Positions 55,755-64,000 of a stretch of DNA of 64,000 bases are shown here, piece by piece; the first letter of the stretch is position 1; each line of letters starts with the position of its first letter. A program made the translations under genes and the position numbers. The notes under the pieces were generated by a model. That model saw nothing but the letters and a program-made list of their open reading frames with translations. It was not told the origin of the DNA and made no database searches. Source of the stretch: an uncultured Acidobacteriota bacterium (lineage in GTDB: Bacteria > Acidobacteriota > Thermoanaerobaculia > Multivoradales > UBA5704); the NCBI GenBank assembly GCA_963700145.1, contig OY969474.1:928001-992000 (forward strand), in the 5' to 3' direction.

Positions 55755-58022
<2,268 letters not shown>

Positions 58023-58243
58023 GCCGTATTTCCGCAGTCTAGGGAATCCCCTAGGCGTCGAGCCTCACGAGGTTGTTCAGTTGGGAGGCTGGGGGTAGTC
58101 CTCCGAGAGCGGACGATTTCTCCGCCCTTGCGCATTTGAGTCAAGGGGGTTGCGTCGCTCTTCAAAGTGCGTAAACTAGCAGCCTCTGTTTCGACGTGGG
58201 GCGAAGTGGGCCAGTCGGTGCTGGCCGGCTCGGAGGAATCTCC

Positions 58244-59224
58244 GTGCAGTTGCGAATCAGCCTCTTCAGCGGCGTCGAGGTCTCGCTCGGGTCGGTCGTG
58301 CAGCCGCGGTTCCCAACGCACAAATCGGCCGGCCTCTTCGCATTCCTGATCCTCCAGCGCGGCCGTTACCACCGCCGTGAGGCGCTGGCGGGGCGCTTCT
58401 GGAGCGAGCACCCCGAGGCCGACGCGCGCAAGGCCCTGCGCACCGAGCTCTGGCGCGTGCGCCAGGTCGTCGAGCCCGCCGGCGTCGCGCCGGGCACCTT
58501 CCTGCAGGGCGACGCCGCGCGCGTTGCCTTCAACGTCGGCTCCGACTACTGGCTCGACATCGAGGAGTTCGAGCGCAAGCTGACGCCGTTCGCGGCCGGG
58601 CGCGGCGAGAGCACCGCGTCGATGCCACTCGACGAGGTGCATGCCGCGCTCGACCTCTACCGCGGCGACCTCCTCGAGGGCCTCCACGAGGAATGGTGCC
58701 TCTACGAGCGGCAGCGGCTTTCGAGCCTGTACGTCAGCGCCACTCAGCGCCTTGTCGACCTACTGATCCAGCACGCCGAATGGGGGCGCGCGGTGGCCGA
58801 GGCGCAGCGCCTGCTCGCCTACGACCCGCTGATCGAGCGCGTGCACCGGCACGCCATGCGCAGCTACGCCGAGCTCGACAACCGCGCCGCGTTCGTCCGG
58901 CAGTACCACCTCTGCGCCGAGGTGCTGGGGCGGGAGCTGGGGGTGGAGCCGTCCGACGAGACGCGGACGCTCTACGAGAAGTTCCAGCGCCAGCGGCACT
59001 GGAACTCGAGAGGCGTCAGCGCGCCCGCGCAGTTCGCTGCCCCGACCGAGCGCAAGGACCCCGAGATGTCGAACGCGCTCAACGAGCTGCAAGACGCCAA
59101 GCGGCGTCTCGCCGGCGCCACGGCGCTGCTTCAGCACGCCATCGACACTGTCGAGCGTCTCACCGCGGTGAAGGTGTCGCCGCCGCCGCGCGCGCTTCCG
59201 GAGACGGTCTTGAGGCGCCGCTGA
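58244..59224 (+). CDS. SARP/AfsR-type transcriptional activator (wHTH + BTAD)
   Basis: LFAFLIL, REALAGRFW, LRTELWRVR, DLYRGDLLEG..EEW...ERQRL, DPLIERVHR..MR.YA, LGVEPS; RBS GGAGG before GTG 58244. Confidence 0.88.
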   Translation: MQLRISLFSGVEVSLGSVVQPRFPTHKSAGLFAFLILQRGRYHRREALAGRFWSEHPEADARKALRTELWRVRQVVEPAGVAPGTFLQGDAARVAFNVGSDYWLDIEEFERKLTPFAAGRGESTASMPLDEVHAALDLYRGDLLEGLHEEWCLYERQRLSSLYVSATQRLVDLLIQHAEWGRAVAEAQRLLAYDPLIERVHRHAMRSYAELDNRAAFVRQYHLCAEVLGRELGVEPSDETRTLYEKFQRQRHWNSRGVSAPAQFAAPTERKDPEMSNALNELQDAKRRLAGATALLQHAIDTVERLTAVKVSPPPRALPETVLRRR

Positions 59225-59325
59225 GGCACTCTTGAGACTGCGGCGTTCTACAGTCCTCACAGCAGCAGCGGCAGTACGAGAGAGGCAGCCACTCCGGGCT
59301 TCGCAGCGGCTGGGCGGCGGTAGGT

Positions 59326-60297
59326 ATGGGACGCTTGACTCGAGTGCTATTTGCGATCGCGCCCGCCGAGGTGACCTTCACGCGGCGCGGCTTCCACCGC
59401 GGCGACGGGGCGGCGGTGGAGCGGCTCGAGCTCGTCTCGCGCACCTTCCTCACCGGCTACCACGCGGCGCTCGGTGAGCCGCGCGCAGCGGCACTCGAGC
59501 TCCGGCTGCCGCGCTTCGACGAGGAGCTGGCCGGCTTCGCCTTCGAAGGCGCGGCAATGGGTCTGGGCATCCTCGACGCGCTGAGCCCCTGGCCGGGAGG
59601 GCGCGTCGGACGGTATCTGGCGGGGCCGGCGGCACCGCACGTCTACGTCGCGCACGTCGGCGTCGGCTGGGCGCTGGCGCGGCTGCCTTTCGCGACGCGC
59701 CGGCTGCTCGCCCCGCTCGATCCTCTCCTCCGCTGGCTCACCTTCGACGGCCACGGCTTCCACGACGGCTTCTTCGACCCGGCGCGAGCCGTCCACCGGC
59801 AGGTGGCGCCCGAGCGACTGCGCGGCTACGCCCGCCGGGTGTACGACCAGGGCCTAGGGCGGAGCCTCTGGTTCTCCGCGGGCGCCGACCCGCGGCGGAT
59901 CGCAGCGGCAATCGGCGCGTTCGCCGCCGCGCGGCGCGCCGACCTCTGGTCCGGCGTTGGCCTCGCCTGTGCTTATGCGGGCGGCGTCGACGCCGGGGCT
60001 CTCGACTGCCTGCGCACCTTGGCCGGCTGGTACCTGCCGCACGTCGCGCAGGGAGCCGCCTTCGGCGCCAAAGCCCGCCACCGCGCCGGGAACCTGACCC
60101 CGAGCACCGACCGCGCCTGCCGCTCGCTCTGCGGCATCGCCGCCGAGGAAGCCGCGGCGGTGACCGACGCCGCGGCGGCGGCGCTGCCCACCCACCCTGC
60201 CGGCGGCCCGTCCGGACACGACGCGGAGCCGCTCTGGGAGAGCTGGCGCAGCTTGACACGGCGGCGTTTCGCCGCCCTGGAGGCGATTCCCGGATGA
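59326..60297 (+). CDS. unbL: Enediyne biosynthesis protein E3/UnbL (DUF1702)
   Basis: VTFTRRGF, GFAFEGAAM, YVAHVGVGWALAR, DGHGFHDGFF, DQGLGRSLWF, DLWSGVGLACAYAGG. Confidence 0.88.
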   Translation: MGRLTRVLFAIAPAEVTFTRRGFHRGDGAAVERLELVSRTFLTGYHAALGEPRAAALELRLPRFDEELAGFAFEGAAMGLGILDALSPWPGGRVGRYLAGPAAPHVYVAHVGVGWALARLPFATRRLLAPLDPLLRWLTFDGHGFHDGFFDPARAVHRQVAPERLRGYARRVYDQGLGRSLWFSAGADPRRIAAAIGAFAAARRADLWSGVGLACAYAGGVDAGALDCLRTLAGWYLPHVAQGAAFGAKARHRAGNLTPSTDRACRSLCGIAAEEAAAVTDAAAAALPTHPAGGPSGHDAEPLWESWRSLTRRRFAALEAIPG

Positions 60298-62258
60298 GCG
60301 CCGGCCGCCCGCTCCGCCGCCACGCCCCCAAGCTCGTCGCGCTCGGCCTGATAGGAGCGCTCTACGGCTTCGCCCGCGAGCCCGTGCCCTCGCCCGCCGC
60401 GGCGGCGGCGCTCGCCGCGCGCTTCCGCTTCGACGCCGCGGCACTGCCCGAGCCTCCCGGCCGGTCCGCCGCCGGCGTGCGGCGGGTGCACCCGACCCTC
60501 GAGCGGATCGCCGGCTGGATCTCCTCGGTCGGCGCGGCGATCGCCCTCGGGGACCTCGACGGTGACGGACTGCCGAACGACGCCTGTCACGTCGACCCGC
60601 GCTTCGACGCCGTGATCGTCGCCCCGCTACCGGGAACCGGCGGCCGTTTCGACCTCTTTACTCTCGACCCACCCGCGCTCCCCGACCGCAACTGGGCGGC
60701 GGCGGCGATGGGCTGCGTCCTCGCCGACCTCAACGAGGACGGGCTCGCCGATCTCCTCGTCTACTACTGGGGGCGGACGCCGGTGGCGTTCCTGCGCCGG
60801 CAAGGGGCGGGCCTCGCCGCCGCGCGCTTCCGAGCGCTCGAGATCGTGCCGGGACGCGAGCGCTGGTACACCAACGCTGCGACCCGCGCCGACCTCGACG
60901 GCGACGGCCACCCGGACCTCGTCTTCGGCAACTACTTCCCCGACGGCTCCCGCATCCTCGACGCCCGAGCGCCGGGGCGCGAGGCGATGCCGGACAGCAT
61001 GTCGCGCGCCGCCAACGGCGGGCGCAACCGGTTGCTCTTGTGGGCAGGGGGCCGGGGCGGCGCCGAGCCGGCGGTCCGCTTCGCCGACGCCTCCACCGCG
61101 CTCGAGCCGGCGCTCGCCACCGCCTGGACGCTGGCGGTGGGCGCCGCCGACCTCGACCACGACCTCCTTGCCGAGCTGTACTTCGCCAACGACTTCGGCC
61201 CCGACCAACTGCTCCACAACCGCAGCCGCCCGGGCCGGCCGGCGTTCGCGCCCCTCGCCGGCGAGCGCGGCTGGACCACCCCCGCCTCGAAGGTCCTGGG
61301 CGGCGACTCGTTCAAGGGCATGGGCGTCGACTTCGCCGACCTCTCGGGCGACGGCCTGCTCGACATCTACGTCAGCAACATCGCCCAGGAGTTCGCGCTC
61401 GAGGAGAGCCACTTCGCCTACGTCTCGACCGGTGCCACGGCGCGGATGCGCGACGGCGTCGCTCCCTACGTCGACCGCAGCGAGCCGCTCGGCTTGGCGC
61501 GCAGCGGTTGGGCGTGGGAGTCGCGACTCGCCGACTTCGACAACGACGGCGTGCTCGAGGCGGTCCAGGCCACCGGCTTCATCCGCGGGGCGGTCAACCG
61601 CTGGCCGGAGCTGCACGAGCTGGCGATGGGCAACGACCGGCTGCTCCACCGGCCCGGGGCGTGGCCCCGTCTCCGCGCCGGCGACGCGCTGTCGGGCGAC
61701 CTCGCGAACGCCTTCTTCGTGCGGGCAGCGGACGGGCGCTACGTCGACGTCGCGCTGCGCGTCGGCCTCGGGCGGAGGCAGGTGTCGCGCGGCGTCGCCA
61801 CCGCCGACGTCGACGCCGACGGCGCGCTCGACCTGGCGGTGGCGAACCAGTGGGAGCCTTCCTATCTCTATAGGAACCGCGGGCGCGGAGCCGCGGCGGC
61901 GCCGTACCTCGGGCTGCGCCTGCTCCTGCCTCTCCGCCCCGCGGCGGGCGCCCACCTGCCCGGCCTAGCGGCGCCGTCGCTGCCGGCGCGCGCCGCCGTC
62001 GGCGCCGCCGCGGAGGTGCGCCTGCCGGACGGCCGCCTTCTCGCTGCCGAGGTCGACGGCGGCAACGGCCACTCGGGCGACCGCAGCCCGGAGCTGCACT
62101 TCGGGCTCGGCGGGCTGCCCCCGGGCGGCCGCGTCGCCGTGGCGCTGCGCTGGCGCGATCCGGTGGGACGCTCACACGGCGCGCGCCTCACCTTGACCCC
62201 CGGCTGGCACACGCTGCTGCTGGGCTGGACCCCTCGCGAGAAGAGGGCTGAGGCATGA
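60294..62258 (+). CDS. unbV: Enediyne biosynthesis protein E4/UnbV (FG-GAP repeats + ASPIC/UnbV)
   Basis: IAGWISSVGAAIALGDLDGDG, YYWGRTP, ANDFGPD, SKVLGGDSFKGMG, NRWPELHELA, VDGGNGHSG.RSPELHFGLG. Confidence 0.9.
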   Translation: MSAGRPLRRHAPKLVALGLIGALYGFAREPVPSPAAAAALAARFRFDAAALPEPPGRSAAGVRRVHPTLERIAGWISSVGAAIALGDLDGDGLPNDACHVDPRFDAVIVAPLPGTGGRFDLFTLDPPALPDRNWAAAAMGCVLADLNEDGLADLLVYYWGRTPVAFLRRQGAGLAAARFRALEIVPGRERWYTNAATRADLDGDGHPDLVFGNYFPDGSRILDARAPGREAMPDSMSRAANGGRNRLLLWAGGRGGAEPAVRFADASTALEPALATAWTLAVGAADLDHDLLAELYFANDFGPDQLLHNRSRPGRPAFAPLAGERGWTTPASKVLGGDSFKGMGVDFADLSGDGLLDIYVSNIAQEFALEESHFAYVSTGATARMRDGVAPYVDRSEPLGLARSGWAWESRLADFDNDGVLEAVQATGFIRGAVNRWPELHELAMGNDRLLHRPGAWPRLRAGDALSGDLANAFFVRAADGRYVDVALRVGLGRRQVSRGVATADVDADGALDLAVANQWEPSYLYRNRGRGAAAAPYLGLRLLLPLRPAAGAHLPGLAAPSLPARAAVGAAAEVRLPDGRLLAAEVDGGNGHSGDRSPELHFGLGGLPPGGRVAVALRWRDPVGRSHGARLTLTPGWHTLLLGWTPREKRAEA

Positions 62259-63187
62259 CGAGCCCAGGGGATCTGCGCCTGCCGGCGCTGCGCCGCTTCG
62301 CCGTCGCCATCACGCTGCTCAACCTGGCCGGCCACGCCGTGCTCGGGTTCGAGCAGTCGTGGGCGCAGCCTCTGGTGGCGCTCGTCGCCGCCTACGTGAC
62401 CGAGCTGCTCCTCGCCGCCGTCGAGGCGCGCGCCGAGGGGCGGCCGGTGCCCTGGACCCGCGGCGGGCCACGCGGGCTCGTCGACGCGCTGCTCGCTCCG
62501 CACATCACCGGGCTCGCCGTCGCCATGCTCACCTACGCCAACGAGCGGCTGGCGCCGGTCGCCTTCGCCAGCGCCGCCGCCATCGCCTCGAAGTTCGTGC
62601 TGCGCGTGCCGATGGGAGCACGGCGCCGCCACTTCCTGAACCCGTCGAACGCCGGCATCACGCTCACCCTGCTCCTCTTCCCGTGGGTTGGCATCGCCCA
62701 ACCGTACATGTTCACCGAGGACCTGGGGCCGGTCGGCGACGTGCTGCTGCCGGCGCTCATCGTCTGCACCGGCAGCTTCCTCAACACCCGCTTCACCCGC
62801 CGCATCGTGCTGGCCGGTGCCTGGCTCGGCGGCTTCGCCGCGCAGGCGCTGCTGCGCGCCTTCCTCTTCGGCACGCCGCCTGCGGCGGGACTGGTGCCGA
62901 TGACCGGCGTCGCCTTCCTCCTCTTCACCTTCTACATGGTCACCGACCCCGCGACGACGCCCGACGACCGGCGCGGGCAGGTGCTCTTCGGTCTCTCGGT
63001 CGCCGCCACCTACGGCATGCTGATGCGCCTGCACGTCGTCTTCGGCCTGTTCTTCGCCCTCTCGATCGTCAGCCTGCTGCGCGGCACGCTGTTCGCCGCC
63101 CGCGCGCTGGCGCTGCGGCGCGCCGCGGCGGCGCGGCGGGTCGAGGGCGTGCTGCCACTGCCCGTGACCGTCGTGCCGCCGCGATGA
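62255..63187 (+). CDS. unbU: Enediyne biosynthesis membrane protein E5/UnbU
   Basis: LRRFAVAIT...LGFEQSW, HITGLAV, RHFLNPSN.GI, AQPYMFTE, FTFYMVTDPATTP. Confidence 0.88.
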   Translation: MTSPGDLRLPALRRFAVAITLLNLAGHAVLGFEQSWAQPLVALVAAYVTELLLAAVEARAEGRPVPWTRGGPRGLVDALLAPHITGLAVAMLTYANERLAPVAFASAAAIASKFVLRVPMGARRRHFLNPSNAGITLTLLLFPWVGIAQPYMFTEDLGPVGDVLLPALIVCTGSFLNTRFTRRIVLAGAWLGGFAAQALLRAFLFGTPPAAGLVPMTGVAFLLFTFYMVTDPATTPDDRRGQVLFGLSVAATYGMLMRLHVVFGLFFALSIVSLLRGTLFAARALALRRAAAARRVEGVLPLPVTVVPPR

Positions 63188-64000
63188 AGGGCGCCGTCGC
63201 CATTGTCGGCATGGCCTGCCGCTACCCGGACGCGCGGAGCCCGCGCGAGCTATGGGAGAACGCGCTCGCCGGCCGGCGGGCGTTCCGCCGCATCCCGGCC
63301 GAGCGGCTGCGGCTGGCCGACTACTACGCCGCCGACCGCGCCGCCGCCGACAGCATCTACTCGACCGAGGCGGCGGTGCTCGAGGGCTACGAGTTCGACC
63401 GCGTCCGCTTCCGCGTCGCAGGCCCTTCCTACCGCGCCGCGGACCTCGTCCACTGGCTGGCTCTCGACGTCGCGGCCGCCGCGCTCGCCGACGCCGGCTT
63501 TGCCGACGGCGCGGGGCTGCCGCGTGAGGCGACCGGCGTCCTCCTCGGCAACACCCTGACCGGCGAGCAGTCGCGCGCCAACCTCTTGCGGCTGCGCTGG
63601 CCCTACGTCCGGCGGGTGACGGCGGCGGCCCTCGCCGAGGCCGGGGTGGAGGAGCGCGGCGCGTTGCTCGCGCGGCTCGAGGCGCTCTACAAGGAACCGT
63701 TCCCGGAAGAGACCGAGGAGAGCTTGGCCGGCGGGCTCTCCAACACCATCGCCGGACGCATCTGCAACCACTTCGACCTCGGCGGCGGCGGCTACACCGT
63801 GGACGGCGCCTGCGCCTCGTCGCTGCTGGCGGTGGCGCAGGCCTGCGGCGCGCTCGCCGCCGGCGACCTCGAGGTGGCGCTGGCCGGCGGCGTCGACCTC
63901 TCGCTCGACCCCTTCGAGCTGGTCGGCTTCGCCCGCACCGGGGCGCTGGCGGCAGGCGCGATGCGGGTCTACGACGCCGGCTCGCGGGGCTTCATTCCCG
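63184..64000 (+). CDS. pksE: Enediyne iterative type I polyketide synthase PKSE, KS domain (partial, runs off the window)
   Basis: ATG 63184 overlaps the unbU stop. AIVGMACRYPDA, FDRVRFRVAG, HWLALDVA, GNTLTGEQSRANLLRLRWPYVRR, LAGGLSNTIAGRICNHFDLGGGGYTVDGACASSLLA (active-site Cys210). Missing from the ORF track because it has no stop codon. Confidence 0.92.
   Translation, partial: MKGAVAIVGMACRYPDARSPRELWENALAGRRAFRRIPAERLRLADYYAADRAAADSIYSTEAAVLEGYEFDRVRFRVAGPSYRAADLVHWLALDVAAAALADAGFADGAGLPREATGVLLGNTLTGEQSRANLLRLRWPYVRRVTAAALAEAGVEERGALLARLEALYKEPFPEETEESLAGGLSNTIAGRICNHFDLGGGGYTVDGACASSLLAVAQACGALAAGDLEVALAGGVDLSLDPFELVGFARTGALAAGAMRVYDAGSRGFIP

Follow-up and report, generated by a model that had tools for sequence, protein, structure and literature searches.

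We describe a complete enediyne-type polyketide synthase (PKS) cassette in the genome of an uncultured Acidobacteriota bacterium (GenBank assembly GCA_963700145.1, contig OY969474.1; GTDB lineage Acidobacteriota; Thermoanaerobaculia; Multivoradales; UBA5704). The cassette begins near the end of a stretch of 64,000 nucleotides, hereafter the window, which corresponds to positions 928001-992000 of the plus strand, and it continues beyond the window in the same single-contig genome (5,455,767 bp; completeness 95.4%, contamination 0.9%). The genes for E3, E4, E5, the enediyne-type PKS (PKSE) and the thioesterase E10 almost certainly constitute a complete minimal enediyne-type cassette, orthologous to that of the actinomycetes, in which it serves the first stage of the biosynthesis of enediyne antitumour antibiotics. 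As a whole, the data are probably best explained by an intact six-gene unit, that is, these five genes and an AraC-type regulator, which is carried on an accessory island of 46,730 bp and would make a linear polyene or polyyne. What is new here is the setting of the cassette on the 46.7-kb island, the missing oxidoreductases, the contrast in exporters, and the pair formed by a DynU16-family START protein and a major facilitator superfamily (MFS) pump.

The cassette and its genes

The minimal cassette has been defined as E10/E/E5/E4/E3 (PMC4480864; PMC9992847). In the window, E3 (59326-60297, plus strand) is a DUF1702 protein of 323 aa, which matches Pfam PF08012 at 4.6e-104 over 313 of its 323 residues; no solved relative was found for it among the PDB sequences. 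E4 (60294-62258, plus strand; 654 aa) has a hydrophobic N-terminus and combines FG-GAP beta-propeller repeats (FG-GAP_3, 2.1e-26) with a C-terminal UnbV/ASPIC domain (UnbV_ASPIC, 1e-08). E5 (62255-63187, plus strand; 310 aa) is a UnbU-type polytopic membrane protein with at least four strongly hydrophobic 19-residue segments, and its only match in Pfam, to NQR2/RnfD, is sub-threshold (23.3 bits against a cut-off of 27.7). The first 272 codons of the PKSE gene follow (63184-64000, plus strand, open to the window end), with a ketoacyl-synt match at 4.6e-45 in Pfam. The three junctions E3/E4, E4/E5 and E5/PKSE are ATGA overlaps, reading GGATGAGC, GCATGACG and GCGATGAAG, respectively, and the GC content at third codon positions (GC3) is 0.88-0.95 in the frames at 59326-64000, which marks them as coding. 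Thus the open reading frames (ORFs), the Pfam matches and the junction letters all agree with the initial annotation, made from the window alone, in which these genes were read as an ATGA-coupled E3-E4-E5-ketosynthase (KS) series. Both PKSE-type motif strings that it quoted, GNTLTGEQSRANLLRLRWPYVRR and RICNHFDLGGGGYTVDGACASSLL, are present in the translated KS frame.

Beyond the window, the PKSE gene (product P0001; plus strand) ends at genome position 997057. It encodes 1957 aa in the order KS, acyltransferase (AT), acyl carrier protein (ACP), ketoreductase (KR), dehydratase (DH) and phosphopantetheinyl transferase (PPTase). Among them, KS, AT, KR and DH are recognised by Pfam, and the AT region matches DynE8 (PDB 4amo) at 7e-63. 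The ACP was found by scanning the AT-KR interval alone (PP-binding, 25.5 bits; cut-off 20.8). For the C-terminal 198 aa, the matches to 4PPT_N and ACPS were sub-threshold only (ACPS HMM, 19.1 bits), and therefore the last 200 aa were folded with AF2, using an alignment of 40 PKSE C-termini. The resulting model has a pLDDT of 94 and a pTM of 0.90. When it was compared with the PDB by Foldseek, all 34 listed matches at E<=0.001 were PPTases (PcpS, PptAb, PptT, Sfp and similar proteins), the best at 1.8e-8, with a probability of 1.00 throughout. The predicted structure of the C-terminus is that of an Sfp-type PPTase fold. In a 15-sequence alignment, Cys210, His343, His390, Ser670, Ser985, Tyr1378, His1508, Asp1850 and Glu1852 of the PKSE are invariant, and we take these to be its catalytic residues.

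The E10 gene (genome 997044-997469, plus strand) overlaps the PKSE stop by 14 bases and encodes a hot-dog thioesterase of 141 aa (P0002). This protein matches SgcE10 (4i4j) at 8e-41, CalE7 (2w3x) at 1e-40 and DynE7 (2xem) at 2e-37, and the next hot-dog protein after these enediyne thioesterases follows at 1e-6. The residues aligned to Asn19, Tyr29 and Arg37 of CalE7, which presumably have a catalytic role, are identical. After E10 comes the gene for the AraC-type regulator (genome 997499-998425), with a GGAGGAG motif ahead of its ATG. The cassette, which had been called complete-looking from its first part, is thus complete: the PKS is whole, with its ACP and PPTase, and E10 follows.

Host and phylogeny of the ketosynthase

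The polynucleotide phosphorylase (PNPase) encoded just upstream of the cassette is 99% identical to a protein of a Thermoanaerobaculia metagenome-assembled genome (MAG) at NCBI, and among the best 120 matches listed, all named ones at 78-83% identity belong to Thermoanaerobaculia or Acidobacteria. By this placement, the host is a soil Thermoanaerobaculia bacterium (Acidobacteriota) and not an actinomycete, as had been proposed with the words non-actinobacterial and Acidobacteria-like.

A KS tree of 105 rows was inferred by an IQ-TREE quick search under LG+G4, with three modular KS domains of the same genome as the outgroup and without the KS domains of polyunsaturated fatty acid (PUFA) synthases. 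All PKSE rows form one clade (support 100) apart from the three modular KS domains, and the host KS, which had been assigned to the PKSE type by its motifs, falls inside it. Of the 47 rows labelled Actinomycetota, 46 form one clade (support 99), outside which the host KS lies. This clade is nested among non-actinomycete rows, a nesting that hangs on the long outgroup branch. Nearest to the host PKSE are two metagenome proteins, P0003 (84% KS identity) and P0004 (81%), with a support of 100. In the free tree, this trio is separate from the clade holding the PKSEs of the host's family (support 95). The approximately unbiased (AU) test did not reject the grouping of the host PKSE with the family PKSEs (p-AU 0.676), and the constrained tree was 10.6 log-likelihood units better. 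In view of the AU result, the cassette is best read as a divergent member of a Thermoanaerobaculia-type group, and not as an import from a distant phylum; a foreign origin outside the host's group is unsupported.

A separate observation concerns the PKSE locus L027, from a MAG labelled Bifidobacteriaceae. Its PKSE groups with that of Pedosphaera (Verrucomicrobiota) with a support of 100, outside the actinomycete clade, and the label may be a binning or labelling error.

Distribution of the cassette

With residues 1-480 of the PKSE (the KS region) as the query of a protein database, 7336 of the 8000 candidates scored had E<=1e-20. Identity is 66-84% for the best 120 of these 7336. Many of the 120 bear the JGI name 'enediyne polyketide synthase' or derive from MAGs, the MAG sources being Thermoanaerobaculia, Pyrinomonadaceae, Chloracidobacterium, Isosphaeraceae and Chlorobi. 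When one genome per species was scanned, at least 586 PKSE-encoding loci were detected; the 80 loci kept come from Actinomycetota, Acidobacteriota, Planctomycetota, Verrucomicrobiota, Cyanobacteriota, Poribacteria, Bacillota, Pseudomonadota and others. In the host's family, the E10-type thioesterase occurs in 60 of 92 genomes (39 of the 56 high-quality ones, and 10 of 11 genera) and E5 in 67 of 92 (43 of the 56). E10 was found in 32 of 401 genomes in the class sample, where one match is an unpublished genome, and in 5 of 401 in the phylum sample, both counts including the present genome. In the four other genomes of the host genus, E5 is missing throughout, and E10 is present in one, on a contig of 4 kb. 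The metagenome contigs scanned with the PKSE contained no close relative; they yielded four short PKSE fragments at 50-54% and one chance match.

Non-actinomycete cassettes have been in print since 2014 (PMC4480864; PMC10308959). In the count of Shen et al. (2015), GenBank contained 61 cassettes, and Actinomycetales accounted for 54 of these (PMC4480864). In the survey of Singh et al. (2023), 160 of the 210 enediyne KS domains from metagenomes fell outside the lineage of the actinomycetes, whose clade held all 11 MIBiG enediyne KS domains (PMC10308959). The excerpts of these two papers do not name Acidobacteria as cassette hosts. No work joining 'enediyne polyketide synthase' with Thermoanaerobaculia was among the literature matches listed, and of the papers in which 'enediyne' occurs with Acidobacteria or Acidobacteriota, those examined do not link the two. 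Consequently, the cassette is less exceptional than the initial annotation held. The finding is not a rare one: such cassettes are in print, are automatically annotated, and are family-wide by the E5 and E10 counts above.

Two further observations were made among the relatives. Two same-genus genomes without E10 and E5 contain DNA that is 68% identical to the E3 gene (G009:C324:3163-3809 and G010:C195:122182-122900). In four of ten family loci (G005, G048, G055 and G074; L111-L114, L109-L110, L119-L120), the PKSE matches in 2-6 pieces or frames, which are either broken genes or assembly indel errors.

The island and its insertion site

The left flank of the island is pnp (55755-58022, plus strand; Pfam RNase_PH, PNPase, KH and S1), the gene for the PNPase. 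The island covers genome positions 986025-1032754, of which the left part, 58025-64000, lies in the window. In three same-genus genomes (G007, G008 and G010), a NIF3 gene comes within 15-165 bp after pnp, and the NIF3 gene of the host lies at 1032734-1033498. The adjacency of the two genes in these three genomes therefore indicates that 46,730 bp were inserted in the host. The nucleotide identity between G007 and the host is 97.5% over pnp and 96.9% over a further 12.8 kb, and the homology to G007, G008 and G010 stops at window positions 58019-58027. Apart from scattered, mostly paralogue-level matches elsewhere, at 64-81% identity, the island DNA is missing from all four genus genomes (G007-G010). 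The GC content of the island, 74.7%, exceeds the 71.5% of the genome and lies at the 98.9th percentile of genome windows; that of the cassette is 76.8% (99.5th percentile), and the tetranucleotide distance is in the top 5.5% of windows. At the island ends there is no direct repeat of at least 10 bp, no integrase was seen, and there is no tRNA in the right-hand 14 kb (L126).

The first island gene encodes a BTAD-domain, SARP-like regulator (58196-59224, plus strand; Pfam BTAD, 2.1e-25). Regulators of the SARP family combine an N-terminal winged helix of the OmpR type with a BTAD domain; the island protein has a weak NCBIfam match to AfsR-type SARPs (3.9e-11 over residues 17-268, far below the cut-off) and no Pfam match to Trans_reg_C at E<=0.001. 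Among the other 90 PKSE loci compared there is no ORF that clusters with it.

A chimeric assembly at the junction of pnp and the island is unlikely, because the insertion lies cleanly between genes that are adjacent in three same-genus genomes. Four public soil-metagenome DNA runs, from three studies, contain part of the stretch. In Logan, record 5 of X1 covers 58081-59956, with 25 more letters before 58029 after 51 skipped bases, which is below the 31-letter rule, and record 22 of X3 covers 58037-58394 with zero mismatches and stops short of pnp. No Logan contig bridges the junction, the contigs being too short.

In the family loci (n=10), the order E3-E4-E5-E-E10 recurs. It is colinear in seven and inverted relative to E10 in two, and G085 shows a third arrangement, with only E10 within 15 kb. 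In G085, E10 and an MMPL gene adjoin ligA and BrkB (L117-L118; G085:C2), and E5 is on another contig. The usual family site, found in 6 or 7 of the 10 loci, is a housekeeping neighbourhood that includes, at one end, a GT2 glycosyltransferase together with an M50 peptidase and, at the opposite end, BrkB, ligA and msrB; none of these flanks matches those of the host cassette. In the host, this site lies between the M50 peptidase and BrkB/ligA/msrB (L135:3800-19100; genome 5248800-5264100) and is a 15.3-kb low-GC (56-72%) mosaic, which includes a DDE transposase (DUF772 and DDE_Tnp_1), a beta-lactamase-family protein, a BNR protein and a hydrolase-GNAT fusion, with no recognisable cassette remnant. 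Ordinary vertical inheritance at the usual site was rejected, since the site holds other DNA in the host.

Could the cassette then be a recently acquired passenger, silent or decaying, with no present product? Such an origin would fit the setting of the cassette, an accessory island of unusual composition which the closest relative lacks, as well as the reading of the PKSE in several frames in four of the ten family loci, and in a soil MAG survey enediyne-biosynthesis genes were over-represented among accessory genes (PMC10640626). Nevertheless, we consider it improbable. All six genes are open and full length, their conserved residues are intact, GC3 is 0.88-0.95, the start/stop overlaps are kept, and the unit has its own regulators.

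Neighbouring genes and the proposed product

ORFs were clustered across 91 loci, 47 labelled actinomycete, 11 from the family (the host included) and 33 others, with flanks of 10-15 kb. The neighbour counts are lower bounds, because the clustering caught the PKSE itself in only 79 of the 91 loci. DUF1702, UnbV and E5 homologues are syntenic in 50-66 of the 91, which argues against the reading that the PKSE is a PUFA-type or other iterative PKS with coincidental neighbours. PfaA is indeed the best NCBIfam match of the KS fragment, but it scores 115 bits against a cut-off of 1010. The KS lies in a fully supported clade with PKSEs including that of Streptomyces globisporus, albeit in a tree without PUFA KS domains, and E10 matches enediyne thioesterases. 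A PUFA-type enzyme is thus extremely improbable.

An AraC-type regulator adjoins the cassette in 24 of the 47 actinomycete loci, in 1 of the 11 family loci and in 14 of the 33 others, and the host regulator is 38-46% identical to those of other cassette loci; this recurrence, together with the identity, indicates that the conserved unit really consists of six genes. The actinomycete loci contain a P450 (27/47), a flavin reductase (23/47), a GMC oxidoreductase (20/47), a CMD-like protein (18/47), DUF5987 (11/47) and an MDMPI/DinB protein (10/47), whereas each of these occurs in none of the 11 family loci and in 0-1 of the 33 others. In the host genome, this accessory set has either no match or matches of 26-34% far from the island. 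The MMPL exporter has the opposite distribution, adjoining the cassette in 0/47 actinomycete, 7/11 family and 8/33 other loci; in the ten family loci other than the host, it follows E10 in seven.

A pathway can be proposed from homology. The C-terminal PPTase would load phosphopantetheine on Ser985 of the ACP, and KS, AT, KR and DH would iterate on malonyl units to give an ACP-bound conjugated polyene, which the hot-dog thioesterase E10 would free. E3, the propeller protein E4 and the membrane protein E5 may modify the chain at the membrane, and export could proceed through the island MFS pump in the host and through the adjacent MMPL pump in the relatives. In actinomycetes, E and E10 alone release a heptaene (PMC4480864; PMC9992847). 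For the host, a linear polyene or polyyne, as opposed to a finished 9- or 10-membered enediyne, has in our estimate close to an even chance of being the product. It is favoured because the accessory oxidoreductases of the actinomycetes are missing and no genes for sugar or aromatic moieties were seen. The initial annotation had left the choice between an undescribed enediyne and a polyene-derived metabolite; the latter, as a polyene or polyyne, is favoured here, while the enediyne is doubtful, since the conserved accessory genes were not found. The remaining probability is shared by a silent gene set and an unforeseen outcome. A 2024 study by Gui et al. in Nat Chem Biol reportedly obtained an iodoheptaene, a diiodotetrayne and pentaynes from the five-gene cassette alone. 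If that result is right, the bare cassette would be a polyyne maker.

Several points weigh against an intact pathway to a polyene or polyyne in the host. No RNA run with the stretch is listed, and the functions of E3, E4 and E5 are described as unknown in the literature excerpts. The exporter partner of the relatives is missing, the best MMPL match in the host being 23% identical and 3.7 Mb away. An absence in the neighbour counts means that a gene was not found in the flanks examined. Finally, about 20 further island ORFs, most without a Pfam or NCBIfam match, could supply unrecognised tailoring, and they include three di-haem MauG-like proteins, two E4-like paralogues and the DynU16-family protein.

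Remaining genes of the island

The AraC gene is followed by six ORFs with little or no annotation, namely one with a weak MauG-like C-terminus, a tandem paralogue pair, a TPR protein and two unmatched ORFs. Neither of the tandem paralogues (L009:14153-15796; 261 and 276 aa) matches a Pfam or NCBIfam family, and among the 91 loci they cluster only with each other. The middle of the island encodes one methyltransferase and one S9 peptidase, and further ORFs encode a DHOR-type di-haem protein and a PQQ_2 propeller. The E4-like paralogues, on the minus strand (L010:7679-10909), are a 351-aa UnbV_ASPIC-redoxin/AhpC fusion and a 700-aa FG-GAP protein. A fusion of 1196 aa (L010:15515-19105) joins a carbon-nitrogen hydrolase and cytochrome c motifs to two di-haem CCP_MauG domains, and the other two of the three di-haem proteins, which are MauG/DHOR-like, are encoded at L009:12452-14026 and L010:12905-14518. 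At the right end are a HEAT protein, a 250-aa di-domain SRPBCC protein (P0243), the MFS pump, a DUF6923 protein and a 144-aa Polyketide_cyc2 protein. The Pfam and NCBIfam scans of the island ORFs, most of which have no family match, revealed no genes for peripheral moieties (sugars, aromatic units). Pfam had no match on either strand of L126:3357-5351 or in two other gap ORFs, and none of the unannotated island ORFs recurs in the other 90 PKSE loci.

P0243 matches DynU16 (PDB 6v04) at 4e-28 over its full length (residues 9-247 to 19-275) and CalU16 at 4e-6, and its motif RFSFGDGDFF fits the family pattern RxxFxDGDFF. By sequence, P0243 is assigned to the DynU16 family of di-domain START proteins, with two predicted helix-grip domains. 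The features described for this family are the RxxFxDGDFF motif at the N-terminus and an occurrence in anthraquinone-fused enediyne clusters, and the function of DynU16 is unsettled (PMC8488855). As a candidate for a self-resistance determinant of the CalC/CalU16 SRPBCC type, P0243 has a match to CalU16 of only 4e-6. A START protein of the P0243 type is present in 2 of the 92 family genomes. The triad of HEAT, DynU16-like and MFS genes (L126:64-3423) has the same order in G076 (L127:971-4209), at 80%, 59% and 60% identity, where it is separate, on its own 6-kb contig. Because of this separate triad and the count of two genomes, the tie of P0243 to the cassette is only suggestive.

These genes raise the question of whether the whole island is a true enediyne cluster, in which tailoring, cyclisation and self-protection would be carried out by enzymes unrelated to those of actinomycetes, such as the di-haem MauG-like oxidases, the E4-like/redoxin paralogues and, together with the MFS pump, the DynU16-family START protein. 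The full-length match of P0243 to DynU16, its weaker match to CalU16 and its motif point in this direction, as do the MFS pump adjoining P0243, the second SRPBCC protein at the island end, the three di-haem proteins of the MauG/CCP type and the pair of E4-like paralogues, all of which share the 46.7-kb insertion with the cassette. However, the DynU16-like gene is 30 kb from the cassette, and its occurrence in 2 of 92 family genomes, compared with 67 of 92 for E5, shows that it is no general partner of the cassette. The triad is self-contained on the 6-kb contig of G076, and the unannotated island ORFs are absent from the other 90 PKSE loci compared. Therefore, we regard a true enediyne cluster as unlikely.

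Implications

A broader picture may be drawn, which we offer tentatively and consider somewhat doubtful. Accompanied in most cases by an MMPL-type lipid exporter, and lacking cyclising or tailoring enzymes, the five-gene cassette could be an old chromosomal pathway to linear polyenes or polyynes in Thermoanaerobaculia and other Gram-negative phyla, whose product goes to the envelope or the surroundings, and the enediynes of actinomycetes could be a later elaboration of it. The host would then exemplify the unit moving between relatives, on a 46.7-kb island whose other genes include those for a DynU16-type binding protein and a pump, a pair that could be a rudimentary module for self-protection.

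According to the excerpts of a 2023 survey, zero products have been reported for enediyne-type cassettes outside actinomycetes (PMC10308959). The minimal six-gene version described here has its own regulator, lacks the accessory oxidoreductases and is common in its family; it could be the simplest system in which to learn the product of the bare cassette, and could reveal the role of this product for a Gram-negative soil bacterium. The division, with MMPL exporters on the side of the non-actinomycetes and oxidoreductase sets on that of the actinomycetes, provides a testable criterion for telling makers of polyenes or polyynes from those of true enediynes. Together, the prevalence, this exporter/oxidoreductase contrast and the island setting are leads to the chemistry of the bare cassette.

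Comparison with known systems

The C-1027 (sgc) cassette can be compared through locus L045 of S. globisporus JCM 4378, which belongs to what we take to be the C-1027 producer species. L045 has the same five genes and AraC regulator and the same PKSE domain order, and the identities to the host are 39% for E3, 43% for E4, 50% for E5, 51% for PKSE, 50% for E10 and 38% for AraC. The two loci differ in the phylum of their hosts, in that E10 is 6 kb from PKSE in L045, whereas it overlaps PKSE by 14 bases in the host, and in that a flavin reductase, DUF5987, a GMC oxidoreductase and an MDMPI/DinB protein adjoin the cassette in L045 and none of them does so in the host. With non-actinomycete loci, the identities are 47-50% for E3 and 59-61% for E5, and 54-55% for E4 with L021 and L024.

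For the CalE8/CalE7 and DynE8/DynE7 pairs and SgcE10, the AT region and E10 of the host match the solved parts. Compared with the calicheamicin and dynemicin systems, the host island has no recognised 10-membered-specific or sugar genes, and the only further link of the dynemicin type is the distant DynU16-family gene. The non-actinomycete cassettes in the published excerpts (PMC4480864; PMC10308959) are alike in being complete outside Actinomycetota with the product unreported. The host differs from them in that it has no MMPL neighbour and in that its cassette is on a strain-specific island with a BTAD regulator and the DynU16-like/MFS pair. Finally, the PUFA synthase PfaA is also an iterative type I PKS with KS, AT, KR and DH, and makes polyunsaturated chains. 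Apart from its low score against the PfaA model, the host PKSE is distinguished by a single ACP, a PPTase of its own, and the partners E3-E5 and E10.

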